Source: a virus. Taken from it: a stretch of 64,000 nucleotides of DNA. The DNA is taken from positions 1 to 64,000 of the IMG/VR virus record IMGVR_UViG_3300031999_000005; one strand, written 5' to 3'. A model generated the notes under the pieces. That model was not told the origin of the DNA, searched no databases, and saw only the letters and a list, made by a program, of their open reading frames with translations. Below, piece by piece: positions 1,561 through 55,953 of the stretch. How positions within the stretch are numbered: position 1 is the first letter of the stretch; every line of letters starts with the position of its first letter. A program made the translations under genes and the position numbers.

Positions 1561-1628
1561 CGTGGCGGCGGGTTGCAGGCGCCCGCCTTCCACATCCAAA
1601 TTTGGACCCTTAGCGAAAGGAGCCATCC

Positions 1629-2162
1629 GTGCCCATGTACCAACCACTGACTGGTAATTTTTCTGCGCTCCGTCCTTTTGGCGTTTCATGGGTAACTCTG
1701 CGCGGTGGGATAATCCCTGGTGTCAGAACGCCAGTGAAGGCCGTTACCGTTTGCGCCATCTATGGGGATGGTGAGCGTCCCCTAGCCATGGGCTTTGCCT
1801 ATTGCTCGGCAAGTGACAAATTCGACCAAGCAGAAGCTGAGGATCGTTCGTTTAAACAAGCAGTCTCCGGGCCGCACGGTGATCCCGCTGTTCTTCGGCG
1901 CATCGGCAGAGTGTTCACCAAGGCAGAACGACACGCCCTGCGGGAGGCGGTGTGGAAGTTGCGGAATCCACAGGGCTGGAAAAAGGATGCGGTCGATGTC
2001 AGCACTGCGGATAGGGACCATCCGGCTTCATCTCCCGGCCCGGTTGAAACCTTGGTTCTCCAACGGATGAAAGATGCGGGGGCTTATCCCAATCGTTATG
2101 ACCATCCCACACCCAAAGAAACGGAGAAGTTGAATGTCAGAGAAGAAGACCAAGGTTTCTGA
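1629..2162 (+). CDS. Hypothetical protein
   Basis: SD aaaggag upstream; operon-contiguous. Confidence 0.6.
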   Translation: MPMYQPLTGNFSALRPFGVSWVTLRGGIIPGVRTPVKAVTVCAIYGDGERPLAMGFAYCSASDKFDQAEAEDRSFKQAVSGPHGDPAVLRRIGRVFTKAERHALREAVWKLRNPQGWKKDAVDVSTADRDHPASSPGPVETLVLQRMKDAGAYPNRYDHPTPKETEKLNVREEDQGF

Positions 2163-3192
2163 ACCGGCGAACCTGGAATGCCTGCATTGCCACCGGACGG
2201 ACTTCAAAGATTCGGCCGGCCTGAAGCGCCACATCACCCGTGCACACACGCATCTCAATGTGGAATTGCCAACTCCGGTCGATGACCTACAGAAAAAGCC
2301 GATCATCTACACCTCGTATTCCGGCTTTGAGGTGCGGGATTTCAGCTATTCGATGGCGAACGACATTGCAGAATGCGGCTGGCGCGCACGGGCAAAGCGC
2401 ATCTACGGGTGGACATCTATAAAGGATAAGGCCGCACTGCACTTCGGGGATTGCATTGAAGAGGCTCTCATGTGGCACTTCGATGATGAGCGGCGCATGG
2501 AGATGCCCGCAGCGTTCGAGTTTCTCTGGAAAGAATACAAGGATGCCGACCTGATCTATACAGAGAAGGACGGCAACTGGCAGGAAATGATGGACATGGG
2601 TATGCGGCTCTCCGACCAGTTTGTGTCGGATTTCAAGAGCGGCGAATTCACCCGCGATACTGTGGGATTCGTGAATCCGCGATTCGGGATGGAATTTCCC
2701 AAGCCGAGCGAACCTCACGAGTGGTACAACGGAACGACGCTGCGTTACAAGGCCGACGCTGTGTGTTGCCCAAGCGAACTTGCCGGGTTCGTGCGAACCC
2801 TGGTTGACGTGAAGACCTCGGCATCATCCTACCCAGAGAAAGAAAAGAATGCAGGAATCATCGCGCTGGACCGGCAGCTTCGCGTGGGTGCTCTTGCGAG
2901 TGGTCTCCGCAATGTGGGGTTCCTGGTCTTCGTGAAGAGCAAGAAACCGAAGGTCCAATGGCTGACAGGATTCATAACGGATGAACTGTTGCGGGACATT
3001 GACCTGTGGCTGCGTGAACAGTACCACAAGTGGTTGAACCGCCGATTCCACCGTTCACCCGGCATCCGGTTTCCGCAGGAACAGTGCATGGCCTGTGAAT
3101 TTTTCCCGTTGTGCATCGGCCGACCAGACTTGGCGGGGGGTCTGCGGCAGAAGGAATCGAAGAAGACGGGTTCGCTGAACGTGCTGGATTGA
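2134..3192 (+). CDS. PD-(D/E)XK Cas4/RecB-like exonuclease with N-terminal C2H2 zinc finger
   Basis: CxxC...HxxxxH finger, HFGDCIEEAL, KADAV...DVKTS, QL motif, C-terminal CxxCEFxxxC cluster. Confidence 0.8.
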   Translation: MSEKKTKVSEPANLECLHCHRTDFKDSAGLKRHITRAHTHLNVELPTPVDDLQKKPIIYTSYSGFEVRDFSYSMANDIAECGWRARAKRIYGWTSIKDKAALHFGDCIEEALMWHFDDERRMEMPAAFEFLWKEYKDADLIYTEKDGNWQEMMDMGMRLSDQFVSDFKSGEFTRDTVGFVNPRFGMEFPKPSEPHEWYNGTTLRYKADAVCCPSELAGFVRTLVDVKTSASSYPEKEKNAGIIALDRQLRVGALASGLRNVGFLVFVKSKKPKVQWLTGFITDELLRDIDLWLREQYHKWLNRRFHRSPGIRFPQEQCMACEFFPLCIGRPDLAGGLRQKESKKTGSLNVLD

Positions 3193-3205
3193 AAGGAGTA
3201 GTGAA

Positions 3206-3559
3206 ATGAGCTTATTCAAAATCGGCCCCGTTGTTAACGAAGTCCCACCCTGTTTCGCTCAGGCTAGTTCTGGGTTTGGTCCCATTCTGAAGCGACTCCG
3301 TGCCCTATACAAAGGGCAATGGCTGACCATCGAGTTCAAGGATTCCAAAACGGCAGAAAAAGCATGCGATTTCCTAGTCGGGGAACTCGCTCTTGAACAG
3401 GCGAAGTTAATGAATGATTCCATGGCTGACTTTAATGCCTGCGCAGAGACAATCTCTGGAGATTTCAAGATGAACTATGGGCGGGATCAAGATGGCGAAT
3501 TGACTACTCTATATGCTCAGGGAATCAAGCGGGGGACACCACCCAAAGCGGACCTGTAG
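3206..3559 (+). CDS. Hypothetical protein
   Basis: SD aaaggag, ATG start. Confidence 0.6.
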   Translation: MSLFKIGPVVNEVPPCFAQASSGFGPILKRLRALYKGQWLTIEFKDSKTAEKACDFLVGELALEQAKLMNDSMADFNACAETISGDFKMNYGRDQDGELTTLYAQGIKRGTPPKADL

Positions 3560-3660
3560 GCGTCGGCCGGACACTCATTGGATGTTACGTGAAGGGCGCC
3601 TTGCAACTTTACCGCCTTCGCATCCAGGAACCAAAGATTGAGCACGATACGAGGTGAACG

Positions 3661-3903
3661 ATGTGGGACGCTAACCAGTGGCAGGAATTCTTCAACGGCC
3701 ACGGCAGCAATTTCGACAATCTGGCCGCGGCGCTGACCAAGGGTGAGATCGCCGATTCGGATGCCATCGTGGAATCCCTTGTCAGGCTTCAGGCCGGTAC
3801 CGTACTTCGGGTGGCCATGGAGAATACCTATACGATGGTCCGGCTGATGGGGAGAATGATCGGGGAGAAAACGGTGTTCCCGATTGGAGGGAAGCCGTCG
3901 TGA
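3661..3903 (+). CDS. Hypothetical protein
   Basis: SD gaggtg; ends in GGKPS like the next gene. Confidence 0.6.
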   Translation: MWDANQWQEFFNGHGSNFDNLAAALTKGEIADSDAIVESLVRLQAGTVLRVAMENTYTMVRLMGRMIGEKTVFPIGGKPS

Positions 3904-3912
3904 GAAAGGAGC

Positions 3913-4155: not shown

Positions 4156-4165
4156 GGGATTTGTG

Positions 4166-4195
4166 TTGACATTTACACCGCTGGTGTAAAATACT
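4166..4195 (+). promoter_or_regulatory. Sigma70-like promoter with overlapping operator (TTTACACC-gct-GGTGTAAA)
   Basis: TTGACA 4166-4171; 8-bp inverted repeat 4172-4179/4183-4190; TAAAAT or AATACT as -10 candidates. Confidence 0.65.
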
Positions 4196-4368: not shown

Positions 4369-5400
4369 ATGCCCCGGATGCGCACCATCAAACCAGAGTT
4401 TTACACGGATGAGAAAATCTGCCGGCTCTCCCATTCCGAGAGGCTACTATTCATCGGAATGTGGAATGCGGCCGACGATAACGGTGTTGGGCAAGCTGAC
4501 CCAACCCTTTTACGGGTAGCTATTTTCCCAAAAGACAAGCCAGTAAATGCGATCCTGCCAGAAGAAAACGTCGAAATTCTGCAAGAACCCGTTACAAAAG
4601 TGGAAAAAGGCGTTACAAAAGTGGAAAAAGGCGTTACTCGATCGGAAAAAGGCGTGAAAAAAGCGCCTGATCCACAGTGCAATCATGCCCCATGTGTCAC
4701 AGATGAAATAGTGGCAACTTGGGTGACATTCCTAGCAAAACTTCGGCTTATCCGCCTTTTTCAGTCCAAGGGAGAGATTTTGTACTACGTCACTAACTGG
4801 AAGAAACATCAGAGGATAGATCACCCTGGAAGGTCCCGATTCGTGGTTCCTGAGAAGTTTCTTCGGACGAGAGAATCTATCGAGGGCGAACGAGAGGGCG
4901 AACGAGAGGGCGAACGAGAGGGCGAACGAGAGCCATTCGCGCCTGATTTAAAGAGGATTAGAAGGGAAGGGATTAGAGGGGATTGTAAGGGGAGAACCGC
5001 CGGGGACACCAGCCCGGCAGAAGAAAATCTTTCTCAAGGCACCGCCACTACAGACCTCGACCTCGGCAGGGATGTGATCGCCTGGATGGAAGCAGTGGCG
5101 AACGGGCAGCGGTTTAGGAAGCACTGGCCGCATAAGGGCAAGGCCAGCCGGGGACCGACCGACAACATGAGGGATGCCCTCCGGGAGAAGGAGCGCACCA
5201 TCGGGGCCGAGAACTTCCGGCAGGCGTGGGTGGACTTCCTGCTCGGGGATGAATGCACCGCCCGGTGGCCGTACCGGAAGTTTATGGACACGGCGCTTGA
5301 TCGCCGGATGGAGGAATTGGTGGACGCCCAGGTGCAGGAAAGGCATGCTGCGGAGGTGGCTCAGGAGGCCGAGGAACGGAACTTGGGGTTGCCAGGGTGA
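4369..5400 (+). CDS. Phage replication initiator / replisome organiser
   Basis: N-terminal MPRMRTIKPEF...LLFIGMWNAADDNG and NWKKHQRI motifs, internal repeats, position upstream of primase-helicase. Confidence 0.8.
   Translation: MPRMRTIKPEFYTDEKICRLSHSERLLFIGMWNAADDNGVGQADPTLLRVAIFPKDKPVNAILPEENVEILQEPVTKVEKGVTKVEKGVTRSEKGVKKAPDPQCNHAPCVTDEIVATWVTFLAKLRLIRLFQSKGEILYYVTNWKKHQRIDHPGRSRFVVPEKFLRTRESIEGEREGEREGEREGEREPFAPDLKRIRREGIRGDCKGRTAGDTSPAEENLSQGTATTDLDLGRDVIAWMEAVANGQRFRKHWPHKGKASRGPTDNMRDALREKERTIGAENFRQAWVDFLLGDECTARWPYRKFMDTALDRRMEELVDAQVQERHAAEVAQEAEERNLGLPG
4590..4652 (+). repeat. 21-bp tandem repeat x3 (iteron candidate)
   Basis: CGTTACAAAAGTGGAAAAAGG twice exactly, third copy degenerate. 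Confidence 0.85.
4882..4929 (+). repeat. 12-bp tandem repeat x4
   Basis: GAGGGCGAACGA x4, encoding EGER repeats. Confidence 0.9.
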
Positions 5401-5566
5401 AAAAGCGGGGTGGGGTAGGTGCGTAGACCTATTAACGGCGAACCCTGACACTACCAAGGCTGGTCCAAAAGCCTTCTAGGCAAGGAAAGGGACGTTCAGG
5501 GATTGGCAGGGGCTTTAAAACGCCTCCTGCGGCAATGTCCAAATTTGGACGCAGAAAGGAAAAAAG

Positions 5567-8279: not shown

Positions 8280-9077
8280 ATGGCAACAGAAACGACGACC
8301 AAAAAGGAATCAGCAGCGAAGACCACCAAGGCGGTGGTCAAGAAACCAGTGACAGCAATAGCGAAGCCTCCGCTACCCAAGACGGCGGTGGTGAAGATCA
8401 GCAAGGACACAGCCCGCGAGATCATCAAGCGTGATCTGCGCTGGCTCCAACAGACGATTGGGGAAGGTGAACGTCGCTGGATGCGCCTTGCCAGCGCGGT
8501 GACCATGGTGAAGACCCAAGGATGGTGGCGCGGTTGGGAAGACGCGAAGGGCGAAGCGTTCAAAACGTTCGACGACTGGCTGGCCGTAGACTGTGCTGAT
8601 CTGGCTCGGTCAAAGGTTTACGCTTTGATTGGCGTGGTCGAGAACTTAGCTGGAGAAGTGTCCGAAAAGCGACTCGAAGAGATCGGGCGCTCTAGGGCCT
8701 ACGAACTTTCCCGGTTAGCGAAGGAGAAACCAAAGGCGCTGCCAGCGCTCCTGGAGCAACTGAAGAAAGACCCCGAGATGTCGGTCGCGCAGGTGAAGGG
8801 CGCCGTGGCCGCGGCGCTGGAAGGCCGGCACATGGACTCAGGCAAGTACCAGCAGTTCGAACTCTCGGTACCAATCGAAGACGTGCCCACCGTGAAGAAA
8901 TGCTTCGCGCTGATGCAGGCGCAACACGGCGGGAAGAACCCGGACGGGGCATCAGCGCTCGGCCGGCGCTTGGTGGACCTGTGCATGTACTACCTCAGCG
9001 CGCCAGCGCACAAGGACCTGCTAAAGCAAATGGAGGCTAAGGAAGAGGGCAAGGCGGCCTTCGCGGTGGAAGCGTGA
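8280..9077 (+). CDS. Hypothetical protein, possibly DNA-binding
   Basis: SD aaggag; FKTFDDW...RSKVYALI helical segment. Confidence 0.7.
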   Translation: MATETTTKKESAAKTTKAVVKKPVTAIAKPPLPKTAVVKISKDTAREIIKRDLRWLQQTIGEGERRWMRLASAVTMVKTQGWWRGWEDAKGEAFKTFDDWLAVDCADLARSKVYALIGVVENLAGEVSEKRLEEIGRSRAYELSRLAKEKPKALPALLEQLKKDPEMSVAQVKGAVAAALEGRHMDSGKYQQFELSVPIEDVPTVKKCFALMQAQHGGKNPDGASALGRRLVDLCMYYLSAPAHKDLLKQMEAKEEGKAAFAVEA

Positions 9078-9548: not shown

Positions 9549-9788
9549 GTGCCCTGCGTGATTCTCGGTCCAGCGGAGTACCGTAAGCTGCGCTGGCAGA
9601 AATACGTGGAGCAAGGCGGGCGCTGCGCCCACTGCGGGAATGGCATGAGTTTCACCGAGATGGGGCTGCACCACAAGATTGCGAGATCGGCTGGCGGAGG
9701 TTTTCGGATGGACACGAAAGAGAACACAGAGGGTTTGTGTAAGGAGTGTCATGGGAAGGCGAAAAACAGGTCCAAATTTGGACGTTGA
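9549..9788 (+). CDS. Small HNH endonuclease
   Basis: QGGRCAHCG...LHHKIARSAGG...N...LCKECH. Confidence 0.75.
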   Translation: MPCVILGPAEYRKLRWQKYVEQGGRCAHCGNGMSFTEMGLHHKIARSAGGGFRMDTKENTEGLCKECHGKAKNRSKFGR

Positions 9789-10839
9789 GAAAAAGCCGAA
9801 GGGCACCGGCCACGCCGGATTGGATGAAGTCATTGCGCGGGTGGAGAAGAAGCACGGTACCGGTGCCGTGATGCAACCTGGCCGGAAGCCACTACCGAAG
9901 GTGAACTTCATCCCTTCCGCATCGCTGACATTCGACCTGACGATAGGCGGGTTTGCCCGCGGGATGATTACCGAGTTGTGGGGGCCGGAAGGATGCGGCA
10001 AGTCGAGTTTCATGTTGCAGACGATTGCTGCGGCGCAAGCGGCTGGTTTGCGTGCGCTCTTTACCGATGCCGAACAAGCCTTGAATTTCCCATACGCCAA
10101 ACAACTCGGGGTGCAGATGGAAGACCTACTGATCTGCCAGCCAAATTCCGGGGAAGAGGCCCTGGACACCCTGGAAGAGATGATCGGCTCTGGAGCCATT
10201 GACCTTGCCGTGTTTGATTCTGTGGCGGCCATTGTGCCGCAGGCCGAGTTGGATGGAGAAATAGGAGACAGCATAGTGGGCGTGGTGCCGCGGTTGATGG
10301 GCCAGTTCGTGCGCAAAGTGGTTTCTTCGGGCATCCTCCGCAAGAGCAATACTGCCTTGGTTTTCATCAACCAGATTCGGGAAAAGATTGGCATTCTTTT
10401 CGGGAACCCCGAAACGCAGCCCGGCGGTCGGGCGTTGAAGTTCACTGCCTCATTGCGAGTTGACATGCGGCGCATCGCGGCGCTGAAAGCAGGAGAAAAG
10501 ATCATCGGTGCCAGGACGAGATTCAAGGTTCCCAAGAGCCGGGTGTGTGCTCCATACGTGGACGGTGAGTTTGACTTGATCTACGGGGAAGGCGTCAACC
10601 GTGCCGGCGAGATCGTGGATCTGGGCGTGGACCTAGGCGTGGTGGAAAAGTCCGGGTCCTGGTACAGCCACGGCGGGGAACGTTTAGGTGCTGGTCGGTT
10701 CAAGGCATGTGCTATCCTGCGGGAGAACACGGAATGGGCCGAACGAATCGAAGGGGAGATCAGGGAAGCATGGACCAAGCGGGCAGAGGGCAAGACGGAA
10801 GAGGCAGCAGAAGCGGTAGGAGCAGAGGCCGAAGAATGA
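9751..10839 (+). CDS. recA: Recombinase A
   Basis: GPEGCGKS, DAEQAL, DSVAAIVPQAE, FINQIREKIG, GNPETQPGGRALKF, KSGSWYS. Confidence 0.96.
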   Translation: MGRRKTGPNLDVEKKPKGTGHAGLDEVIARVEKKHGTGAVMQPGRKPLPKVNFIPSASLTFDLTIGGFARGMITELWGPEGCGKSSFMLQTIAAAQAAGLRALFTDAEQALNFPYAKQLGVQMEDLLICQPNSGEEALDTLEEMIGSGAIDLAVFDSVAAIVPQAELDGEIGDSIVGVVPRLMGQFVRKVVSSGILRKSNTALVFINQIREKIGILFGNPETQPGGRALKFTASLRVDMRRIAALKAGEKIIGARTRFKVPKSRVCAPYVDGEFDLIYGEGVNRAGEIVDLGVDLGVVEKSGSWYSHGGERLGAGRFKACAILRENTEWAERIEGEIREAWTKRAEGKTEEAAEAVGAEAEE

Positions 10840-11417
10840 TCGCTCAGGAAAATATGGCGTTGATCGACCGTGCTCGACAGAGGGACAGCGAAGCCTTTTC
10901 CTCCCTCTGTGTGCCCTGCATCACGCGCCTGAAGTTCTTCCTGATGAGCCGTGGTGCCGAAGAACAAGATTGCGAGGATTTGATCCAGGATACTTTCCTG
11001 CGGGCTTGGCGGGGCATCAAACACTTCCGCGGGGATGCGGCGGTTTCCAGTTGGCTGACGAAGATCGCCTACAACGTATTGGTGGAAGATGCCCGCAGAA
11101 AGAAATGCCGCATCCAGGCGGTTTCCTTAGATACGCCAGAGTTCGAAAATGGGCAGACACTTTCCGGTCTACCAGATCCCGAGGTGGACATTCACGCCGA
11201 TGCCGAGAATCGGGAGTTGGTGGTGTTGATTTCCCGGTGGGTGCATCCCAAGAGATTTCGCCTTCTCTGGATGCGCTTTGCCGAAGGGATGAGCGTGAAA
11301 GATGTTATGCGGAAAACCGGGGAGAACCGGACCACCGTAAAAAGCGCGACCGTATGTGCTCGGCTGAACGCCCAGCAGGTGCTGGAACAAAAAGCCAACA
11401 TCTGCATTTGGATGTGA
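10836..11417 (+). CDS. ECF-type RNA polymerase sigma factor
   Basis: EDLIQDTFLRAW...FRGDAAVSSWLTKIAYN (region 2) plus C-terminal region-4 HTH. Confidence 0.88.
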   Translation: MIAQENMALIDRARQRDSEAFSSLCVPCITRLKFFLMSRGAEEQDCEDLIQDTFLRAWRGIKHFRGDAAVSSWLTKIAYNVLVEDARRKKCRIQAVSLDTPEFENGQTLSGLPDPEVDIHADAENRELVVLISRWVHPKRFRLLWMRFAEGMSVKDVMRKTGENRTTVKSATVCARLNAQQVLEQKANICIWM

Positions 11418-16157: not shown

Positions 16158-16346
16158 ATGGCGAAAAAATGGATAGCTGGCGCGATTCGGCACCCTGGCG
16201 CCTTCCGCGAGGAAGCTAAACGCGCTGGCAAGGGCACGATGGAATACGCCCGTGAGAAAGCGAGTGCCGGTGGGAGAACCGGAAAGCGAGCGCGGTTGGC
16301 GCTGGCGTTGCGGGGATTGTCTCACCGCAAGAGTTCGGGCAGATAA
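16158..16346 (+). CDS. Small basic phage protein
   Basis: MAKKWIAGAIRHPGAF...RARLALAL pattern recognisable from phage head-region small proteins. Confidence 0.65.
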   Translation: MAKKWIAGAIRHPGAFREEAKRAGKGTMEYAREKASAGGRTGKRARLALALRGLSHRKSSGR

Positions 16347-16855
16347 CATCCAAATGCGGATGCTGCAAACAGCGGAGATTGCCGAACCCCCGAAGCGGCC
16401 TCACAAGCCCCGCGTTGGATTCGCTCCCCGCATCAACAAGTCTTGCCAGGATGGCCGGCACAGCAGGTGCTTGTCGCTTCATTGTACTTGCGAATGCCAC
16501 ACCCAATGGGCCAGGGCCATCGGGGTCTCAGCCCCCCCATCTTCTCCTTGCTGAGGCCCCCAGGGGCGCGTGTCGCAACCCACGCGCCCCCTGCCTTTAA
16601 AGTTTTACAAGAAAAGACTTGACATCCATTCTCCCGGTGCGATAGAACAGGGAAGCAGAGCAACACAGCCAACCAAACAAAGAAGGCCGCCCAGCCCAAC
16701 GAGTTGAGCGGCCTTTGATTTTTGTGCGGGCGGTAGACGTGATTTTTATTTCCGTTTTACGTTTTTTCCTCTTGACAAGAACTTTTCCATGGTGTAAAAC
16801 AGCAAGACATGCTTTTCTTGGACGACGACCGACGATTAGTGAAAGGAGTGTGCTG

Positions 16856-21387: not shown

Positions 21388-21528
21388 TCACTCGACCTTG
21401 CGCTTTTTTGCCAGATCACGAATCCCTATTTCCAGGGCGGCGGCTTGGCTTATCCCGAGTTTCGACGCCAGCAACTTCAACAGTCGAAGTGCCTCTGGCG
21501 TCAATCGAAAACCGGCTGCATGTTTCAT
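21388..21528 (-). CDS. CopG/RHH-like small regulator upstream of tnpB
   Basis: GFRLTPEA...LGISQAAALEIGIR; TTGACA-18-TACACT promoter at 21564-21535. Confidence 0.7.
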   Translation of the reverse strand: MKHAAGFRLTPEALRLLKLLASKLGISQAAALEIGIRDLAKKRKVE

Positions 21529-21628
21529 GTAAGCAGTGTACGGCTGAACGCAATACAATGTCAAGAGGAAAAATACAGGGCAACGCACTAATCTGCGCTT
21601 GCCCTTCGGCACATCCAAATTTGGATGT

Positions 21629-22264
21629 TTAAGCGAATTCCTCCAGTTGTTTGCTTCTCTGTGGATGGCGGAGGTTGCACATTGCTCTGGCTTCGATCTG
21701 TTTGATTCGTTCTTTTGACACCCCCATCTCAGCGCCGATTTCTTTGAGAGTTTTTTCTTCTCCTTCTAATCCAAATCGTTCCCGTATGACTCGTTGCTGT
21801 CGTGAGTCGAGACTCGACACCACACTATCGAGGGTCGCCTTCAGCCTTTCGTTCTCCCCTCCCTCCATTTCGTAAACTGGCAATAGTTTCATCGCCCGTG
21901 CTTCCTGGAAAGATAAAATGCGCTCGGACTCGACCTCTTTGATTGCTACCTTTGGGAGCCGAAGCTGATATAGGGACTGCGGGAAAATTGTTTCAGGCAA
22001 GGTATTGAAGAAGGTGGCCACCTTTTTCGCGCTCCTTCTGTATTGGTAGTAGCCCTCGCTCGTCTTTTTGGACCTGTCGAACGGGGAGATCCTTAAGCTC
22101 AACAGGCCCATGAGCACGCCGTAACAAACCCCGATGATGCCTGCCGCTGTCCCTACGCCGGTCCATCTTGCCCGGCAGGCGTCCTCTGGACAGGGGAAAT
22201 GCTCCTGGATCAGATTCCAAAGGAGCGCGTTCTTAAACCGCAATTCAAGACGCAAATCCTTCAT
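21629..22264 (-). CDS. Sigma70 region-4 domain protein
   Basis: LDSRQQRVIRERFGL...TLKEIG...VSKERIKQIEARAMCNLRHP. Confidence 0.85.
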   Translation of the reverse strand: MKDLRLELRFKNALLWNLIQEHFPCPEDACRARWTGVGTAAGIIGVCYGVLMGLLSLRISPFDRSKKTSEGYYQYRRSAKKVATFFNTLPETIFPQSLYQLRLPKVAIKEVESERILSFQEARAMKLLPVYEMEGGENERLKATLDSVVSSLDSRQQRVIRERFGLEGEEKTLKEIGAEMGVSKERIKQIEARAMCNLRHPQRSKQLEEFA

Positions 22265-26757: not shown

Positions 26758-26943
26758 CTAATTCCTCCAATTCTAGCGGCGATGGCTGTGCAACATCCAA
26801 ATTTGGACGTAGCGCCTCGACCGTCTCGCCGCAGTTGGTACACGTGGCCGTACCGTCCTCGGTGGATGCTGTGAACCAATCATCCGAGACACCGCAGGAC
26901 GGGCACCGCTCGGGCATGTTGTAGAACTCGGGCATGGCGCTCC

Positions 26944-28260: not shown

Positions 28261-29004
28261 CACACCCTCCTTTTATTTCCGCCATCCGTAGTGGATGGCG
28301 AACCACAGAAACAGAAACCAGCAGACGTACAGCATGATCTCTTCAATGATGGCCCAACCCCGCCAGCGTCGACCGACGGGGTTCGAGTACAAGTGGATAA
28401 TGACGCGCATCGTCAGACCCGCACCGCGAAAAAATGCCGGCCACACGCAATGATGACCTGCCGGCCAGTCTCGGCCTCCCGCAATTCGGACAACTCTTGC
28501 TGGATTTGCTGGCGCCCTTCCTCCCGCTCCCGGTTGGCAACCTGTCGAAAGTTGCCGGGGCGTTCGCGGTTCTTCTTGCGATTGCGCTGTTCAAGCTCAT
28601 ATGCGGATTCCTCCGCGTTGTGTTCCTCGACGGTCCTCAGAATAGCCATTTGCGCGTCCTCCAAGGGCATCAGGACAGCCCGACGCCTCACCTGCCGAAT
28701 ATCTTCTTCCTTGCCGCAGCCAAGAGAGTCCGTAGCGGCGACCTGGGGGCCTTTTGCTGGGGCACCACCCGCAGCGCGATCTTGCGGGCCAGGAACTCCG
28801 CCTCATGCCGGTGCCGGTCCTTTGCGATCTTGGCGGTTTCCTTGGCGTGTTCCCGCCCAAGGCGGCGGTTTCGGGCGTTGGGAAGCCCGCGGTACCGTTC
28901 AATGGTGCGGCGAATCTGGCGTAGACTGGTGCCGAATCCTCGGATGCTGCCGGGGCTTGGAATCTTCATAACCTTTCCTTTCACGTCCAAATGCGGATGT
29001 TGGG

Positions 29005-34034: not shown

Positions 34035-34452
34035 ACCCGCTCAACATCTGTATTTGGATGTAGTAGGGTATCGAAAGCCCTCAGGCGTTGCGTCCTGGTG
34101 CCTTCTATGCCCTTGTTTTTGTGTGGATTGCAGGAATTGGGGTTTTCTTCAGTAGCCCTCGGTGGTTCCCAGCGGTACACAAGCCTTCCAGCCCCGTGCA
34201 AAGTCCACTCCCCGCTCCTGCATACGGATCGAGCGCGCCATTGACGCCCGGTTCGGCCATACCTGGAATAAAACATCAAAGTCCATAATCCCACAACCGG
34301 CGCGTTTACGTGCGGTACGTTCCGGGTGTTCTGGGACGTGCCCGCTGGTCTCGGCCCCCGACAGGATATAACGCTGCATGTCTTGATTCCAACCCCCGCC
34401 TGCTGCCCTCTGTGCAGAGCCGCAGGCCGGGGCTGGTCTCCCCGGCCGCGAT

Positions 34453-37400: not shown

Positions 37401-37600
37401 TTCATGGCGTACTGAACCGTTCGCCTGTGGTGTCGGCGTAAGGGATAATCGCCGGGGTTGTCCTTGAGGTATTGCCGACGCCACTTCCTCCATTCGTGCT
37501 CGATCCGGCGTGCCTCCTCGACCGTGGCACCGGTCGCCTCCGCTGATCCTGCGTGGTTCAAGGTGCCTTCGCAGTCGAAGGCGTAAATCTGGTATTTCAT
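34453..37600 (-). other. Second array of small early-type genes with shared intergenic motifs (e.g. 34803-35180, 35415-35792, 35917-36261, 36317-36518, 36593-36844, 37358-37600)
   Basis: Co-oriented ORFs; recurring GTAG-CGCCCCGC after stops and GGGAGGTAC SDs. Confidence 0.65.
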
Positions 37601-38280
37601 TGGTTGCGCTCCTTTCAAAACTACCGTTCGCCCGTGGCCCTTAAGCCCTTTGCTTTCTTCTGCTGTGCTGGTGTTTTCGGCTCTTCCAGAAGTGGTTACT
37701 TTTGGTTGCCGTGCCTGGTGAGCCGCGTTCATGCTCTCAGCCTACACCCGCCCTTTCCAGCCTCCAAGCCTTTTCCATTGAACGGCTGCAAATCGGGGTC
37801 GAATGGCGAGAATCACGGGTCGAACTGCTAATGTACGGAAAGCGTCCACGTCCAAATTTGGATGTTGGGCGCCGCTGGTCGTCGGCCTGGTGGTGTCGCC
37901 CCTGGTGCGTGTCGGCGTTGAAGACCAGGCGCCTCCAGTCGCCGGCAGAGCCGCCCCCGCCTGCCTTCGGTGGTGAGCATGGGCGCCGCCTCTGCCCTTC
38001 CAGGTGCAGCGGTGGAGGCGGGTACAAGGGCCTCGATCCGCCCCCGGCAGAGCCTCGCGCCCTTTCTGCGTCCCCGCTTCCGCCTGCCTTCGACCCCTGC
38101 CGCCGCCCCGTGCCAGCCCCGCCAGCCTGCCGCCTTGCCTGCCTTTGCCCCCTGCCTGCACTCGCCACCGGCCCGGTAAGGGGTAAAGGGGTAGCGGTGG
38201 TAATCGCCGCGCGCGGGAGGGACTCATTGGAGGGCCAGCGCACAAAAAATTCAAAAAGTTTTTTAGTTGTAAAACGAAAA

Positions 38281-38290
38281 GTGATAGGAT
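38281..38290 (+). promoter_or_regulatory. Extended -10 promoter candidate (TGaTAGGAT), repeated near 39076; related site near 42955
   Basis: GTGATAGGATAGG before two consecutive genes, each preceded by TGTAAAAC and A-tracts. Confidence 0.5.
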
Positions 38291-38299
38291 AGGCAGGAG

Positions 38300-39004
38300 A
38301 TGGAGCATATAGTGGCATTATCAGGGGGGAAGGATTCGACGGCGATGGCGCTGAGGTTAGCAGAGGTAGAGGGACGGGGATACGAATACATCTGCACGCC
38401 GACAGGGGATGAATTACCAGAGATGGAGGGACACTGGAAGAGACTTGAGGGGATACTGGGGAAGGAGTTAATCCGACTGAAGAACCACGATCTTGATTTT
38501 TGGATAGAGGAATTCAAGGCTTTACCAAACTGGCGGCAGAGGTGGTGCACGAGGTTGCTAAAGATAACACCTTGCCTTGCGTTTTTACGGGTGCATCAAC
38601 CGGCAACGCTTTACGTAGGACTCCGGGCGGATGAGGAGGAGAGGAAGGGGCTGTATTCGACGGAAGTTTTAACTGACTTCCCGTTACGGCGGTGGGGGTG
38701 GGGGATAAAGGAGGTGCGGGAATATCTAAAGGTGCGGGGCGTTTGCATCCCACGGCGGACGGACTGTGCTCGGTGCTACGACCAGCGGCTGATCGAGTGG
38801 AAGCGCTTGTGGCAATTGCATCCTGAGATTTACGCGAAAGCAGAGGCACAGGAGCAAAGATTGGGCTGCACTTTCCGCGGCCCTGGAAGGGATAATTGGC
38901 CGGCGCCGCTTGTAGAACTGCGCGTGGCATTTGCAAGCGGTCGAAAGGTGCGTGGAGAAGCACAGTATGAGGAATACGAGCGTTGCCGAGTGTGCAGGAT
39001 GTAA
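38300..39004 (+). CDS. PAPS-reductase-family (adenine nucleotide alpha-hydrolase) protein
   Basis: SGGKDS PP-loop, RWCTRLLKI, GLRADEEER, RTDCARC. Confidence 0.85.
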   Translation: MEHIVALSGGKDSTAMALRLAEVEGRGYEYICTPTGDELPEMEGHWKRLEGILGKELIRLKNHDLDFWIEEFKALPNWRQRWCTRLLKITPCLAFLRVHQPATLYVGLRADEEERKGLYSTEVLTDFPLRRWGWGIKEVREYLKVRGVCIPRRTDCARCYDQRLIEWKRLWQLHPEIYAKAEAQEQRLGCTFRGPGRDNWPAPLVELRVAFASGRKVRGEAQYEEYERCRVCRM

Positions 39005-39093
39005 AGTGTCCATTCGAGGGCCGACTGGCAAAAAATAAATTCAAATTTTATAGATGTAAAACAGGAAGAGGGTGGTGATAGGATAGGGGGCGG

Positions 39094-40896: not shown

Positions 40897-40904
40897 ATAA
40901 ATAG

Positions 40905-41363
40905 ATGAGAAGTCCATCAAGGCAGGCACTCTCAAATCAGCAGAAAAAAGCCGCACTTGTGGCGTACAAGGGCGGCAGGTGTACAGATTGCGGAGGAACG
41001 TTTCCGCAGTGCTGTTATGACTTCGACCATAAGGACCGGACTCAAAAGCGATTCCACGTTGGTAGTCATATAGGAGGGGCGCTTCCAGCACTGATGCTGG
41101 AAGCCGACAAGTGCGATCTCATCTGTGCAAACTGTCATCGCATCCGAACGGCTGCGGATGCTGGAATAGCAGAACATCTTTCTCGGATAAGGAAGGGCAA
41201 ACCCGGCAGGCCGATGTCCGAAGAAAACAAGAAGCGGTTAAGCATCGCCACCAAGGGCAGGCGGCTGTCACAAGAACACAAGGAAAAACTCAGTGAGGCC
41301 AACAGGGGCAAGGTTCCCTGGAACAAGGGATTCTCTGCGCGCCGGTCGCGCAAGCCTTCATAG
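40905..41363 (+). CDS. HNH endonuclease with NUMOD3 repeats
   Basis: KGGRCTDCG...DFDH...KCDLICANCHRIRT; SEENKKRLS / SQEHKEKLS...PWNKG. Confidence 0.85.
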   Translation: MRSPSRQALSNQQKKAALVAYKGGRCTDCGGTFPQCCYDFDHKDRTQKRFHVGSHIGGALPALMLEADKCDLICANCHRIRTAADAGIAEHLSRIRKGKPGRPMSEENKKRLSIATKGRRLSQEHKEKLSEANRGKVPWNKGFSARRSRKPS

Positions 41364-41382
41364 AGGCGTACATGGGGTGCAG

Positions 41383-42108
41383 ATGAACGGATTGCCGAAG
41401 GCGTACTACGATGACGGGAGGGGGATCAGGATATACCTGGGAGACTGCCGTAAAATTCTTTTCTTGCTTGAGCAGCATGATGCCTGCCTAACGAGCCCGC
41501 CGTACAATCTCAGGAAGGGATATCCATGCGATGATTGGCCGACATGGAATAATTATTACGGGTTCCTGCGAGGTGTGTACGGAGCGGTTCCGGCGCCGAT
41601 CCAGGCGTGGTTATTTCCATTTTCGCTGAATGACGAGGACTCAGGATTGATCCGCGCAACATGGAATGAATGTGCCCTCCCATGGAAGCGGCTAAGACTT
41701 GTCCTGCGGCATCCTTCCGTGGACGACAGCAAAAGCCTAATCGCAATGCCGCCACGAGCGGAAATCCTCTGCATCAATACTTGGGCTGAAGAGAACGGGC
41801 CGAAGATCTGGTGGGTGCCACACGCGAAGTTCGCGGCAAGTAGATTATCTATGCGGGTTGGTCATCCGGCCAGTTTCCATGAACGGTTGCCAGCAGAGTT
41901 CTTCGCAGCCTTCCCAACCGTTAAGTCGGTGATTGATCCATTCATGGGTACGGGGACGACGCTTGTGGTCGCAAAGCAGCGTGGGATACAAGCGACCGGG
42001 ATCGAGATTGTTGAGGAATTTGCCGAACTTGCAGTGAAGCGTTTGGCGCAGGAGATGTTGCCGCTTCGAGCACCTGCTTTGGAGCCAGAGCAGGGGAGTC
42101 TGATCTGA
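41383..42108 (+). CDS. DNA N4-cytosine/N6-adenine methyltransferase (beta class)
   Basis: TSPPYN, HPASF, DPFMGTGTT, GIEI. Confidence 0.88.
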   Translation: MNGLPKAYYDDGRGIRIYLGDCRKILFLLEQHDACLTSPPYNLRKGYPCDDWPTWNNYYGFLRGVYGAVPAPIQAWLFPFSLNDEDSGLIRATWNECALPWKRLRLVLRHPSVDDSKSLIAMPPRAEILCINTWAEENGPKIWWVPHAKFAASRLSMRVGHPASFHERLPAEFFAAFPTVKSVIDPFMGTGTTLVVAKQRGIQATGIEIVEEFAELAVKRLAQEMLPLRAPALEPEQGSLI

Positions 42109-42411: not shown

Positions 42412-42439
42412 ATGTCCAAATTTGGATGTTGGAGGGGGC

Positions 42440-42913
42440 ATGGAGGAAAGGATCACGGTCAGGTGCCCACGGTGCAAGCTGGTGCAGTACGTGGCTGCGG
42501 CCAAGCGTTGTCGGCGGTGCTGGTTTGCCGGTGTGATTGTTCCGTTGGGTGCTGATCCTCTGGCCGCAGTGAGTAAAGTGCAACCTGCAAGCCCCGACGA
42601 GGCAGTGGATTTTCTTGAAGCGTTGCGATACTGGCGAAATATCGCTGGAATGAACAGAGCACAATTGGGCACCCGCATGGGCAGATACCGCCGGACGTAT
42701 ATCTATAGATGGGGAAGAGCGCGCCGTTCTCCGAATGTTGAGAACATCATGTCTGTGGCAAAGGCGCTTGGCATCCCGGCGAGGTGGCTGCTGGTTCCCT
42801 GGCCCACCGACGGAACATCCCGGATGATCTTGTGGGAGGCGAGCAAGTTGCCAGCCAAGCGCCGCTGGGAGTTGATGGGGAAGGTGCGGGGCATGGCTGA
42901 GGGGCGGGCATAA
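42440..42913 (+). CDS. Zn-ribbon plus XRE HTH transcription regulator
   Basis: CPRC...CRRC; LRYWRNIAGMNRAQLG...RTYIYRW...P..ENI..VAKALGI. Confidence 0.75.
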   Translation: MEERITVRCPRCKLVQYVAAAKRCRRCWFAGVIVPLGADPLAAVSKVQPASPDEAVDFLEALRYWRNIAGMNRAQLGTRMGRYRRTYIYRWGRARRSPNVENIMSVAKALGIPARWLLVPWPTDGTSRMILWEASKLPAKRRWELMGKVRGMAEGRA

Positions 42914-45343: not shown

Positions 45344-45812
45344 GGTACATCCAAATCTGTACGTTGCGGGCATTGAACATTGCCCCCTGACCTACCGGCG
45401 GAACGAAGATTGGGCCGGCATCGTTCACGCCTGCAAAGACCCCTGCCACGCCCGCGTCGTCGGGCACCGAGTCGCCAAAGACGATCCTCAATACCTGTGG
45501 GCAGAACGACCGGTTGATCTATGGCTCAACATGATTGACCCGCCGGTGCCGCTGTTCAAGGCGGAGTTGTTCAACAAGGCCCTGGACTTCATCTCGGAGC
45601 GCATCCAGAAGGGGCGTGTGCTGGTTCACTGCAACGAGGGGTTGTCGCGGGCGCCGACAATCGCGCTGGTGTGGCTGGCGAAGCGGGCCAGGATGCTTCC
45701 GGTGGAGAATTACCAGGATGCGCGGGTAGCATTCGAATCAAAGATGCCGGACTATGCGCCGGGCCTTGGGATTCAGATTTTCCTGCGGGGGCATTGGGAG
45801 GAGGTCGGATGA
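45333..45812 (+). CDS. Dual-specificity / Cys-based protein phosphatase
   Basis: VLVHCNEGLSRA (HCxxGxSR); EVHPNLYV N-terminus. Confidence 0.88.
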   Translation: MLTEVHPNLYVAGIEHCPLTYRRNEDWAGIVHACKDPCHARVVGHRVAKDDPQYLWAERPVDLWLNMIDPPVPLFKAELFNKALDFISERIQKGRVLVHCNEGLSRAPTIALVWLAKRARMLPVENYQDARVAFESKMPDYAPGLGIQIFLRGHWEEVG

Positions 45813-48409: not shown

Positions 48410-48646
48410 ATGATCGAATGCACCCTTCACGATTTTCACCAATGGCTGGATGAACAGGGTTGGCCGAGTGAAATCATTCTGCATCCAGACGACTTCACGC
48501 TGCTACAAGCCCGCTTTGGACCCGGAGACCGCAAACTGCTGTTCGATGACTGGAGAAACTATTTTATCTGTGGGCCTACGCGCATTCGACCGGGTGCCTC
48601 CAACAAGAAGTTTCTGGACGTGAGCAAGGAGAGACTGTTCAAGTGA
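48410..48646 (+). CDS. Hypothetical protein
   Basis: Operon-contiguous; PSEIILHPDDF motif. Confidence 0.55.
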   Translation: MIECTLHDFHQWLDEQGWPSEIILHPDDFTLLQARFGPGDRKLLFDDWRNYFICGPTRIRPGASNKKFLDVSKERLFK

Positions 48647-49497
48647 AGCGCCAACATCCAAATTTGGACATGCCGAAGGGCAAGCGCAAGTTCCACTGGA
48701 AGAGAGTCAACTACGCCTTGTTCGTCACGATTCGCAAGACGCCGAAGTTGGAAGCCTCTGCCGTCTACGGTCGTGCCATCGGGTTGAGGAAGGACGGCCA
48801 GACGTTTTCTGCGCTGGCCGCGTTGCCCTGGATCATCCCAAGGAAATTCGACTGGCGCCCGATAGCCAAGGCCCGCCTGGATTCTTTTCTTCTCGCAGAT
48901 TGCCGCTGCAAATCGGAGGGTTCCGAAGTCACCACCTGCAAGATGCACCACGGGATACGAGGAAAGTGGTTGGCCGAAGACGCCAAGAGAACCAAAGAAC
49001 TGCCAGCACAGCCAAATCTCTCGCTTGATTCTGGGCCGGTGTCTGGCTTCAGGGTGATGAACAGAAACTATCCCTGGTGCGTGATGATCCTGGAGAAGAA
49101 CGAGTGGTTCTGCGACATCTGCAAGGCCGCACACCCAGCGCATGAGGACAACCCGAGCTACCGGAATCAATTCATCCTGAGACATTCCCATTGCGGATTT
49201 CCGGCGGCGGGATATGCAGAATCGCTGCGGAAGTGCAATCTCAGCACATGGGCAGACGCAGCGGCTGAGGCCAGGAAGCGCATAGATGAAGCTAGAAGGC
49301 GGGCAGACAAGGTTGAGGGAGAAGTGCAAGGTTATCGTCTCTTGGAGGTAGCCTTCAAAGAAATCTCTGCCGGTCGGTGCAATCCATACCTTCCTGAGCG
49401 AATGTCCTTTGAGGAAGTGGTCCAGCATGCTGTAGGGGAAGGGGTGGCGATTCCCGAATCGCTACGCCCGCAACTGTTGGAGGGAAAGAGCCGATGA
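48643..49497 (+). CDS. Hypothetical protein
   Basis: Long ORF overlapping neighbours at both ends. Confidence 0.55.
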   Translation: MKRQHPNLDMPKGKRKFHWKRVNYALFVTIRKTPKLEASAVYGRAIGLRKDGQTFSALAALPWIIPRKFDWRPIAKARLDSFLLADCRCKSEGSEVTTCKMHHGIRGKWLAEDAKRTKELPAQPNLSLDSGPVSGFRVMNRNYPWCVMILEKNEWFCDICKAAHPAHEDNPSYRNQFILRHSHCGFPAAGYAESLRKCNLSTWADAAAEARKRIDEARRRADKVEGEVQGYRLLEVAFKEISAGRCNPYLPERMSFEEVVQHAVGEGVAIPESLRPQLLEGKSR

Positions 49498-51365: not shown

Positions 51366-51442
51366 CGGGGCGTAGCGCAGCCTGGTAGCGCGCTTGCCTT
51401 GGGCGCCGGTAATCCCCGGTTCAAATCCGGGCGCCCCGACCA
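51366..51442 (+). tRNA. tRNA-Pro(TGG)
   Basis: Cloverleaf CGGGGCG/CGCCCCG, D arm GCGC, anticodon loop CTTGGGC, GGTTCAAATCC, encoded CCA. Confidence 0.93.
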
Positions 51443-51521
51443 ACCTAACGAACGTCCACATTCGGATGTAAAACCTACCTCTTGACTCCCTGCCGGTTCT
51501 CGAACCACAATATCAGCGAAT

Positions 51522-55000: not shown

Positions 55001-55191
55001 GAAAAAGCAGCGAACCAGAAAAGGACAGAGGGCGAGATTTCTACAACACCGAATCCTGTGCGCCTTGTACCAATCGACCACCGAGCCAGACGGTCTTCCA
55101 CGATCAAAAAATGCCATCGGACATGAGCCTGTACTTGGCGAATGCACCGATGCCTGAAGGAGATGACAACGAACTGTGGAAGAGGTTATAA
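52066..55191 (+). CDS. terL: Terminase large subunit with intein
   Basis: LKARRLGLST (Walker A), HL|SE (Walker B split by intein), ESTS, QEFP, DVAEG, APETN, DDRVMS. Confidence 0.92.
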   Translation: MAISRKDPYLNEILEILDMIYDQAGNDIARAYSSLGTHELKFIEEETTRCADWRYYVENYHIIRTVDGNLQTLYPLWDSQEIFYEPVLLAQRAHLPVRIITLKARRLGLSTECQSLIFHKTIFTHNWDSLIVAQDPDQTAYLFEMSRLAYEKLPWWMRPESRYDVKGTQLVFDRKDPKERLLHPGLRSQIMVASANKMSGISVGKALMSTHLCLTKENYVLRQDGKITPISEIKVGDRVESRCGPVPVSFVSFRESDANVSVTPWCNSAFPIIGTPNHRILCGELVKKQIAGKRGPAIRNIRWVELGKVSLKDCLVIPVKKISDTRELPVARLPESFRRKHGGGSIPLPISPQKTREWGFAIGLYLAEGSIEKAKVIISLDKKENGLASRFSRAIGVAEGKVGKSRKTRTRVHRFYNAALATWLADNFGHHGEKIIPDWAWETGRDFLLGIIEGLMLGDGHFPLKNRECIFCSICPQLSIRLRDAVASLGIGYGSLYLRKAGIRYGRNCKNAWLTHFAMKTNDSLRLLFGIKPSRKVQRHHGKHWYYSLNRSEIYVRLRKIEEVLGDTVYDIEVDSPNHEFLLPGAVTHNSELSLWPDPKKLAEYLFPTMESNQGLYFMESTSRGRHGFWPRFWKKSVRRETNWTPVFIESFRVRKYSIPIDAGENFVLTAEEKAIRDKVLRQRKVEIPLEHFKWRRKTIQDFVAANGDDSMYYQEFPATSPSESFVGTGLCAFDKKKLQRIREETCCDPIWFGEIRLEKKKPRAILYESAKAAHIPPQTVEGGRLYVWEMPEPKEIYYVSGDVAEGIIGGNFSDAQVLRKGKGPAPDVQVAEWHGWISPEEFAEVLAALGMLYNNAEIAPETNAKCGGLMIGHLSRVVEYENIFRWKHYDKVKNQRTNYLGWATNTKSRADIIAKGTRAVREGLVIIRSEELVEEMFDFASTDDSVKIEGQDNWDDRVMSFLIGYFCAHDSDEYTDYGKSSEPEKDRGRDFYNTESCAPCTNRPPSQTVFHDQKMPSDMSLYLANAPMPEGDDNELWKRL
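52702..53835 (+). mobile_element. Intein with LAGLIDADG homing endonuclease (378 aa)
   Basis: Starts CLTKEN, block B TPNH, GLYLAEG and GLMLGDG, VYDIEV...THN followed by Ser+1. Confidence 0.95.
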
Positions 55192-55245
55192 TCTAACCGC
55201 TGGCGCCCCGGCAGGCAGCGTCCAGCGAAGGAGGAAGTTTCAATA

Positions 55246-55887
55246 ATGCTAAAACACAATATCGCCTGCCCTGATTGTTTGCTCACCGGCGTGGAAACCC
55301 CTCTTTGCTCAGACCCTGGGAGAGTCATTGGTTATTTCTGCGGTTCTGGGCACGAGTTTAAGGACACCGAAGCCCTGATGAGAAGGAACGCGCCGAAACT
55401 CTCTCGACCGCCCGTTCCGCTTGCCCCGATTCCTCAAGCTGGCTTGGTGGAGATCCGCATTGCGCTTCCTGGCGTTGTGGACAGCGCCCTGACCCAGCGG
55501 TTTGGCCCGAAGAAAAATCCGACCATCGTGGCTGTATTGCAGGCGCTCTGCGACCCGCAGACTCTACTGATCTCGGCTGAAGACCGGGCACAGATCGTGG
55601 AGAAACTGGGCGAGGAATTCAAGACGGCTGGCGAACTGGCGGGGATGATCTTCTCCTTCAGGGATACGGCCCGCAATCTTGAAAAAGACAAGGAGGACCT
55701 GGAAAAACAGGTGGAGAACCTGCGGCAAGGGAAAATGGCGGAGAGCGGCGGCGGTGGGGGTGTGTTCGTGGTGCTGGAAACCAGTGTCCTGGAACGGTTG
55801 CAGCAGATTGCTGAATTCCGCGAGATGGACCTGGGCAGGATGCTGGCTGAGACGGTTACTGGGGGTCTTGAATCGGGCTGGTTTTAG
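55246..55887 (+). CDS. Zn-ribbon protein between terminase and portal (paralog of 11429-11998)
   Basis: CPDC...CGSGH; SD aaggagg. Confidence 0.7.
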   Translation: MLKHNIACPDCLLTGVETPLCSDPGRVIGYFCGSGHEFKDTEALMRRNAPKLSRPPVPLAPIPQAGLVEIRIALPGVVDSALTQRFGPKKNPTIVAVLQALCDPQTLLISAEDRAQIVEKLGEEFKTAGELAGMIFSFRDTARNLEKDKEDLEKQVENLRQGKMAESGGGGGVFVVLETSVLERLQQIAEFREMDLGRMLAETVTGGLESGWF

Positions 55888-55953
55888 TCGCGGGGGCGAA
55901 CACGCTTGACAAGCGCTGAGTTTACGTCCAAATTTGGACGTGAGGTTTAGTCC

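Follow-up and report, generated by a model that had tools for sequence, protein, structure and literature searches.

An evenly spaced palindrome dispersed along a large soil phage chromosome, and a candidate ParB/KorB-type protein that may read it

Short dyad-symmetric words that recur along an entire phage chromosome have been described before. The closest published case is found in the Cluster O mycobacteriophages, Corndog and its relatives, which carry 34 copies of the 17-bp repeat 5'-TGTTCGG-N3-CCGAACA, many of them between genes and about a third inside genes, with no orientation to transcription (PMC4351075). These phages are not obviously temperate and encode proteins with ParB-like domains; the authors predicted that a dimeric protein binds the repeat and, in 2015, stated its function as unknown (PMC4351075). 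Here, we focus on an 18-bp palindrome, ACRTCCAAATTTGGAYGT, dispersed along virus record IMGVR_UViG_3300031999_000005, and on a protein encoded at positions 8280-9077 that may read it. The KorB operator OB of plasmid RK2 is also palindromic, and about 12 copies lie around the 60-kb replicon, roughly one per 5 kb. KorB itself is a sliding clamp dependent on cytidine triphosphate (CTP), has a ParB_N domain, and works with the partner KorA (PMC11790492).

The stretch analyzed, called the window below, comprises bases 1-64000 of a single virus contig of 103,756 bp (CheckV completeness estimate of 88%). From the genes it encodes, the record is a phage, and its host is probably acidobacterial. Within the window, the core TCCAAATTTGGA occurs in nine perfect copies where shuffled sequence yields 0.01, and the full 18-mer, with up to three mismatches, occurs in 15 copies against 0.08 expected; the whole genome holds 21, at a density near one per 5 kb. 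An initial annotation of the window had counted about 14 copies, and this stands: the nine perfect cores lie exactly where it placed them, its five variants were all recovered, and one additional copy, at 11398, had been missed. Across the 21 copies, positions 4, 5, 9, 10, 13, and 15 of the palindrome never vary, position 3 is always a purine, and position 16 always a pyrimidine.

By our own gene calls, 13 of the 21 copies are intergenic, against 12% of the sequence being non-coding. Many follow directly on a stop codon and lie ahead of the next ribosome-binding site, 10-25 nt before the next start, in agreement with the placement at gene junctions first noted in the initial annotation. Proximity to start codons is to be expected, as a compact genome offers only short gaps. 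The even spacing of the copies is a separate constraint. The 21 copies are distributed more evenly than chance would allow, with a circular coefficient of variation (CV) of 0.44 (P ~5e-5), and the smallest gap between copies is 1,630 bp (P = 4e-4). With sites drawn from the 131 real gene junctions available, none of 20,000 trials came out as even as the array of this phage (G000; P < 5e-5). The same junction null gave P = 0.001 and P = 0.0008 in two relatives, G006 and G007, where a uniform null gave P = 0.002 and P = 0.0008, and the CV ranged from 0.43 to 0.71 across all 11 palindrome-bearing genomes. The period also carries on through long genes. Copy 92318 lies midway in a 10.5-kb gene and keeps the period, as do copies 8934 and 12464 of G006 inside an 8.9-kb gene, and the intragenic copy 84554, imperfect here, is fully palindromic in a relative of 95% identity. 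Selection acts on the array to keep the chromosome evenly covered; since the spacing is even and is kept inside giant genes, the array serves the whole chromosome rather than single promoters.

The individual copies illustrate this use of the available gaps. Two intergenic copies with two mismatches each, 1592..1609 and 5535..5552, have the next called start 25 nt on and a start codon 14 nt on, respectively. The second of these is 134 nt downstream of the gene for a 343-aa protein (4369-5400), in which residues 1-58 match PHROG 'replication initiation protein' families. Copy 9768..9785 (one mismatch) spans the final codons of an HNH endonuclease gene (RSKFGR-stop) and the start of recA; the initial annotation had already noted PNLDV in RecA as a coding-sequence case. 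Copy 11398..11415 (three mismatches, centre TGCATT) falls at the 3' end of the gene for a sigma region-2 protein (sigma-r2), and 16346..16363 (three mismatches) abuts a stop codon. The perfect copy 21611..21628 abuts the stop codon of the gene for a sigma region-4/KorA-like protein (sigma-r4) and contains the TTG start of a ribbon-helix-helix (RHH)-like open reading frame (ORF), and another perfect copy, 26793..26810, is intergenic within a block of minus-strand genes. A 35-nt intergenic gap is filled by 28983..29000 (two mismatches), with a minus-strand start 13 nt on. Copy 34044..34061 (three mismatches) lies 9 nt past the stop of a serine recombinase gene, and the perfect copy 37848..37865 occupies the intergenic region from which the minus and plus gene blocks diverge. 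Right after a stop codon comes 42412..42429 (one mismatch), with the gene for an XRE protein starting 10 nt on, as first reported in the initial annotation. Copies 45347..45364 (two mismatches) and 48654..48671 (one mismatch) lie at the 5' ends of a phosphatase-like gene and of ORF 48643-49497. Finally, 51452..51469 (two mismatches) is separated by 9 nt from the end of tRNA-Pro (51366-51442) and precedes the terS-like and terL genes, and the portal start codon is 12 nt beyond the perfect copy 55924..55941. Six copies lie beyond the window, at 67245, 73662, 77998, 84554, 92318, and 97158.

Several features of these sites were observed in passing. RecA, the RHH-like ORF (21388-21618), and ORF 48643-49497 have possible starts at a TTG inside the palindrome, and the three genes so started read (P)NLD[VM]...PKG. 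Copies 21611 (minus strand) and 48654 share 17 more identical bases (GCCGAAGGGCAAGCGCA) past the palindrome. Like copy 51452 of the window, copies 34543 and 39242 of G007 (L168) lie 9-10 nt past tRNA 3' ends, and one such copy is only 3 nt before the next gene of a tRNA cluster.

A palindrome can be read as duplex DNA or as a folded strand, and the variable positions are informative here. All four combinations of the purine at position 3 and the pyrimidine at position 16 occur in similar numbers among the 21 copies (5 A/T, 4 G/C, 6 G/T, and 6 A/C), so the two positions are independent; the pair is Watson-Crick in only nine copies, and A.C is as frequent as G.T. Predicted hairpin stability ranges from -13.9 to -2.8 kcal/mol, and the A.C copies, at -2.8 to -4 kcal/mol, do no better than shuffled sequence, the best copy reaching -14. 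The central bases, which would form the loop, do not vary in this phage, and all even-length lineage variants have a self-complementary centre. Relative to transcription, asymmetric variants favor neither strand, with a 5:4 split in G007. The lack of covariation, the lack of strand bias, and the self-complementary centre point to a site that a symmetric dimer reads as duplex DNA, as the initial annotation had supposed. We consider it highly probable that a dimeric protein of the phage docks on the copies in their duplex form.

The only deposited relatives of this phage are the Tunturiibacter phages Tunturi 1 and 2 (portal identity ~23%). Public metagenomes hold a large family of ~100-kb relatives with portal identities of 38-52%. 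Among these genomes, the word is either conserved or re-spelled. Tunturi_1 carries GAGTCCAATATTGGACTC in about 14 copies against 0.7 expected; in the paper on the Tunturi phages, the palindrome goes unmentioned. G006 has 18 copies of ACTCCAAATTTGGAGT in 54 kb (the CTCC-AAATTT-GGAG class), and G007 has 15 copies of CGTCCATATATGGACG in 57 kb (the GTCC-ATATAT-GGAC class). The word is TCCAAC(N)GTTGGA in G008 and G009 (13 and 7 copies), GTAAACC-S-GGTTTAC in G014, G017, and G019 (10-12 copies), GTGCAC-N2/3-GTGCAC in G020 (~10 copies by arm matches), and GTCTACACGTAGAC in G015 (11 copies). Over 42 dereplicated portal-centred loci, TCCAA/TTGGA arms with spacers of 2 and 3 occur 22 times against about two expected. 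In G006 (L164-L166; e.g. 6596, 26828, 31088, 48580, 49404), the arms are CTCC and GGAG, the 3' arm coincides with the ribosome-binding site, and in transcription orientation it is better conserved than the 5' arm. Two relatives combine spacings within one genome: TCCAAC-GTTGGA stands alongside TCCAAC-N-GTTGGA in G008 (L170-L175), and GTGCAC-N2-GTGCAC alongside GTGCAC-N3-GTGCAC in G020 (L206-L211).

In three complete genomes, G011, G012, and G013, a coherent dispersed palindrome was looked for and not found. The word GGGA(A/G)TGTTAG of G011 was considered as a counterpart of the array and rejected as a different kind of element, being directional and clustered: its 29 copies (L176-L181; 1.6-12, 22-28, and 91-94 kb) are all but one in gene sense, often in tandem ~25 nt apart, and may be early promoters or iterons. 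The TTTAA-N4-TTAAA matches of G012 are heterogeneous AT-rich words that form no coherent repeat. The exact word of this phage was found at seven loci of the viral collection, the only related one being a fragment of a 95%-identical strain, and at 47 loci of the metagenome collection, of which seven are near relatives from one project. Metagenome loci L081 and L037 are unrelated low-GC sequences. L081 (JAEEGL013352767.1), a 4.9-kb metagenome contig of 41% GC, bears four copies or near copies of the 18-mer and has no protein similarity to this phage.

The candidate reader, encoded at 8280..9077 (+), is a 265-aa protein with a modeled ParB/KorB-type DNA-binding domain (residues ~63-185) and no CTPase domain; its C-terminal helical region may serve dimerization. 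The protein weakly matches PHROG 4715, 'ParB-like partition protein'. Members of the family were found, first with a hidden Markov model of three orthologs and then with a profile, in G007, G008, G009, G014, G015, G017, G019, G020, and Tunturi_1 (gp51), each of which has a dispersed palindrome; neither search found one in the complete genomes G011, G012, and G013. A coherent palindrome of 14-18 bp and the reader family occur together in 10/10 genomes that cover the region. The family also predicted palindromes in G009, G015, G017, G019, and G020 and none in G012, and the prediction held. The start of the putative recognition helix differs with the motif class: RSK/RSS goes with GTCCA-W4-TGGAC, RAN/RAQ with TCCAAC, RQY with GTAAACC, and RSL with GTGCAC.

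Two AlphaFold models of this protein were obtained, one with a mean predicted local distance difference test (pLDDT) score of 69 and one, from 67 sequences, of 87.7. Residues 1-40 are modeled at low confidence (pLDDT ~50-80) and without secondary structure, and residues 42-80 as one long helix. Searched against 48,161 representative chains, both models returned the same list, in which ten chains reach a Z of at least 5 and six of these ten are ParB-superfamily DNA-binding domains. The match to KorB (8qa8; Z 7.1-7.2, 98-99 residues, ~3 A) spans KorB residues 151-252, its whole DNA-binding domain, and is followed by ParB-parS (6s6h, Z 6.9), Spo0J (1vz0, Z 6.5), KorB-operator (1r71, Z 6.4-6.5), and SopB-DNA (Z 6.0-6.1). 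Complexes of Noc, ParB, SopB, KorA, and VirB with DNA are also among the weak Foldseek matches. As modeled, the protein has a ParB-type helix-turn-helix (HTH) DNA-binding domain and would work like the DNA-binding part of KorB or ParB, and we do not file it in the CTP-clamp family. A six-frame search of the whole genome for ParB_N (PF02195) gave no match at E <=0.1, with control genomes matching, and ParA was not seen among ~80 annotated proteins, no ParA-specific search having been made; the ParAB-type partition system that the initial annotation had envisaged was thus not borne out.

The reader family is large, with 1,990 sequence clusters at E <=0.001 in public data, and Pfam does not cover it. 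Faint matches to DUF3102 appear in 3/67 members, and the literature on this domain offered nothing useful. Neither tblastn of two members against 50,697 deposited phages nor a search for related loci in other phages with a single distant member returned anything.

A second gene travels with the candidate reader. The HNH endonuclease gene (9549..9788, +; 79 aa) matches PF01844 above cut-off, and ORF clustering of 14 genomes showed that, the reader aside, no other family of this phage is shared with the palindrome-bearing genomes but missing from G011-G013. In G008, G009, G014, G015, G017, G019, and G020, it comes immediately downstream of the ParB-like gene, and the two genes often overlap. The distance is 470 nt in this phage and 1.5 kb in Tunturi_1, where the homolog gp47 (E 1e-11) follows gp51. 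By sequence, its catalytic and zinc-binding motifs are intact, with no visible DNA-targeting domain, for which the protein is too small. The shared distribution and the missing specificity domain suggest that the nuclease may be directed to the palindromes by the reader.

From these data, we favor, at somewhat better than an even chance, a reading in which the palindromes are duplex sites of a phage protein and the 8280-9077 product is that protein. The grounds are the enrichment, the even spacing, the dyad symmetry without covariation, the re-spelling, the co-distribution, and the fold match. A homodimer of the protein would dock on each palindrome through its ParB/KorB-type HTH, one subunit per half-site (ACRTCCAAA), with the half-sites recognized fairly independently. 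Selection would keep one site per ~3-5 kb, using short intergenic gaps where present and otherwise writing the site into long genes, so that the phage chromosome would be marked over its whole length. What such binding would achieve has three candidate answers of equal standing: it may recruit the HNH nuclease for nicking in the service of the adjacent replication and recombination genes, it may set roadblocks or insulators, or it may organize the chromosome. Recruitment is a candidate because the HNH protein has no targeting domain of its own. In the boldest form of the idea, which we rate as improbable, a clamp-less ParB/KorB-type protein would bring the 79-aa HNH to every palindrome, so that the chromosome is nicked or broken each 3-5 kb; the nicks or breaks would be entry points for recombination-dependent replication or packaging. 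RecA, a PD-(D/E)XK nuclease, RuvC, and a primase-helicase are encoded in the same region as the reader and the HNH.

A number of observations weigh against assigning the palindromes to this protein. In G008 and G020, even and odd half-site spacings occur side by side, more than a rigid dimer would accommodate; the reader would have to accept a 1-bp change in half-site distance. Taken singly, the low-density genomes show no significant regularity of spacing. The three complete genomes without palindrome and reader belong to a single clade, and since the reader and portal trees are congruent, the pattern amounts to one joint loss and vertical co-inheritance. The adjacent HNH gene is distributed just as the reader gene is. 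Z scores of 6-7 are middling for an all-helical domain, Foldseek gave no match at E <=0.001 with either model, and the family has no Pfam or PDB sequence match. G015 shares the RAQ helix start of G009, yet its motif is different. Moreover, no palindrome copy lies directly upstream of the reader gene, and so there is no sign of autoregulation.

Of the other explanations, the one that survives best is that the copies are operators, or 'stoperator'-like roadblocks, through which another phage regulator controls transcription operon by operon. Three proteins come into question: the XRE (HTH_3) protein (42440..42913, +), the sigma-r4 protein (21629..22264, -), a sigma-70 region 4 or weakly KorA-like HTH protein (KORA PF16509, E 0.0034), and an HTH_17 protein (97482-97931). 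The 13 copies in short gaps, many after a stop and just before a start, are what this explanation would predict, as is a copy 10 nt ahead of the XRE gene, the arrangement of an autoregulated repressor. Another copy abuts the sigma-r4 gene, and G007 retains one upstream of a gene pair that includes the XRE homolog. However, none of the three proteins follows the palindromes. The XRE protein, named as a possible binder in the initial annotation, has a homolog only in G007 among the genomes first searched and the HTH_17 protein only in G006, and sigma-r4 has one in none of the relatives searched; in the complete, palindrome-bearing G008, G014, and Tunturi_1, none of the three was detected. The other binders proposed at that time, namely sigma-r4, the RHH-like ORF, and the recombinase, do not follow the palindromes either. 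Of the promoter proposed ahead of the portal, the TTGACA at 55906 is indeed present, but a sigma-70 consensus scan calls no promoter there, and between 40 and 60 kb, sigma-70-like promoters and terminators occur at shuffle level and do not track the copies. Proximity to starts would be expected of anything confined to the gaps of a compact genome, the evenness survives the junction null, and some copies lie within giant genes. Neither a large integrase nor a ParAB-type lysogeny module is among the annotated genes of this partly annotated proteome, in which a small serine recombinase (242 aa) and the XRE protein are the only lysogeny-type genes found. Control by such a regulator is therefore unlikely. 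The two sigma-like regions, region 2 (10836-11417, 193 aa) and region 4 (minus strand, 211 aa), are two separate proteins, and no homolog of the sigma-r2 protein was found in the relatives examined either.

A less probable explanation, which we hold to be doubtful, has a nuclease or recombinase, acting alone, target the copies or leave them as its footprints, be it through HNH nicking or homing, at serine-recombinase sites, or at module-exchange joints, with the ParB-like protein as a linked bystander. The distribution of the HNH gene equals that of the palindromes, and a copy lies in its own 3' end; the serine recombinase gene ends 9 nt before another, two copies share the 17 bases mentioned above, and site-specific nicks are known in T5, phiKMV-like phages, and tf (PMC3517423). 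Still, a 79-aa HNH leaves no room for an 18-bp specificity domain, and in those phages the nick sites are asymmetric words restricted to a single strand (PMC3517423). The recombinase was rejected as the reader, its family occurring only here and in the palindrome-less G011 (E 7e-20) and G013 (E 1e-3). A link to TnpB/IS605 was likewise dropped, as just one copy adjoins TnpB/IS605. Selfish spread would not yield even spacing, and a rearrangement in a near-identical strain (L044) does not break at any copy. Relative to window positions 35262-41508, this strain lacks ~38300-41382, a stretch encoding a PAPS reductase, a C5 methyltransferase with a nested HNH, and a NUMOD3 endonuclease.

It is more doubtful still that the phage has captured the sites of a host protein, a nucleoid-associated factor or a regulator. 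The attraction of this explanation is that GTCCAA..TTGGAC arms are common to this phage and the distant Tunturi_1, while the closer G014 and G020 use other words, so the choice of word might track the host and not phage descent. A host regulon or repetitive extragenic palindrome would recur in host genomes, and the exact word does not: among 185,579 species genomes (596 Gb), the exact 18-mer in four variants gave 20 singletons, about the chance level, and none of those listed is from Acidobacteriota. The reader tree is congruent with the portal tree, the position of Tunturi as outgroup fits an ancestral GTCCA-type word, and gradual, lineage-specific re-spelling that includes flanks and centre fits a co-evolving reader encoded by the phage. 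The initial annotation had named three outcomes that would speak against it, a word no more frequent than background, a word missing from related phages, or a word belonging to a host regulator; enriched, conserved or re-spelled in relatives, and not multi-copy in species genomes, the palindrome has passed all three.

The least probable explanation is an RNA or single-stranded DNA hairpin, whether a processing site of the T7 RNase III type, a stabilizer, a terminator, a means of sequestering the Shine-Dalgarno (SD) sequence, or a hairpin promoter of the N4 type: copies are intercistronic and beside tRNA genes, perfect ones fold well (-8 to -14 kcal/mol), arm complementarity is kept across lineages that differ in inter-arm distance (2 or 3 nt), and in G006 a hairpin would mask the SD formed by the GGAG arm, with starts 4-8 nt downstream, but pair 3/16 shows no compensatory change (6/21 A.C, 6/21 G.T) and no sense-strand G.U bias, the A.C copies fold at shuffle level, the 'loop' is invariant and self-complementary as described, asymmetric variants have no strand bias, copies also lie mid-gene, and the 3,502-aa giant protein has no RNA polymerase family match, only portal and helicase-type PHROG matches. 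Promoters of an own polymerase were rejected on this last count as well; a six-frame search with PF00940 (T7-type RNA polymerase) found no match, and control genomes were equally silent.

The annotation behind these comparisons covered ~80 proteins, part of the proteome. It includes a primase-helicase, RecA, a PD-(D/E)XK nuclease, an SNF2 helicase, TnpB, a C5 methyltransferase, terminase, portal, the giant protein, RuvC, the serine recombinase, an N6/N4 methyltransferase, the two sigma-like proteins, and two tRNAs. The C5 methyltransferase (39094-40896) is 51% identical to gp50 of Tunturi_1 (L083:41693-42664), where portal, capsid, and terminase identities are only 22-30%, and gp50 directly adjoins the ParB-like gp51. 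At 27525-27765, a 9-bp tandem repeat, CCCRAGCGK, of ~15 units lies within a minus-strand gene (27370-28260) and gives rise to a three-residue peptide repeat.

Returning to the ParB/KorB-type protein as the reader, its confirmation would place a ParB-type DNA-binding domain at work genome-wide in a virus and without a CTP clamp. If the bolder recruitment of the HNH proved true, it would amount to programmed, evenly spaced nicking with a separate targeting subunit, and could explain the dyad-repeat arrays of other phages. The cultured Tunturi 1 and 2, phages of Tunturiibacter psychrotolerans, have the palindrome as well as the candidate reader (gp51) and the HNH (gp47), and the idea is therefore directly testable.

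Among known systems, the nick sites of T5, phiKMV, and tf resemble the present array in that a short conserved word recurs along the genome, 14 times in tf, at partly conserved positions, and they are of interest here because an HNH gene travels with the candidate reader. Their words are asymmetric, confined to one strand, and tied to physically demonstrated nicks (PMC3517423), whereas the present word is a palindrome, on both strands everywhere, and known from sequence alone. The Cluster A stoperators are also short sites in tens of copies genome-wide, mostly in short intergenic gaps and bound by one phage protein, gp71 in L5 (PMC4351075). They are, however, asymmetric 13-mers oriented with transcription and serve the immunity repressor of temperate phages. 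The sites described here are dyad-symmetric, unoriented (5:4 in G007, balanced purine/pyrimidine combinations), evenly spaced, and also intragenic, with no evidence of lysogeny among the annotated genes.

By analogy, KorB and OB of the IncP plasmid RK2 would be the nearest mechanistic model. Operators there lie both beside and far from promoters, and KorB structures 8qa8 and 1r71 are the best structural matches to the reader's domain (Z 6.4-7.2). Unlike KorB, the candidate reader has no ParB_N and no ParA-type partner was noted, and homology is by fold only. The Cluster O repeat shares the short dyad word in tens of copies along the genome, in and between genes and without orientation, on an unrelated sequence, host, and phage group. 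Its copies are denser toward one end of the genome, and that paper describes neither an even spacing nor a reader gene or HNH partner (PMC4351075). What the present phage adds to that case is a spacing that is statistically regular and kept inside giant genes, a word that can be traced through its re-spelling across a large family of ~100-kb soil phages, and, alongside it, one protein family that can be named as the candidate reader.

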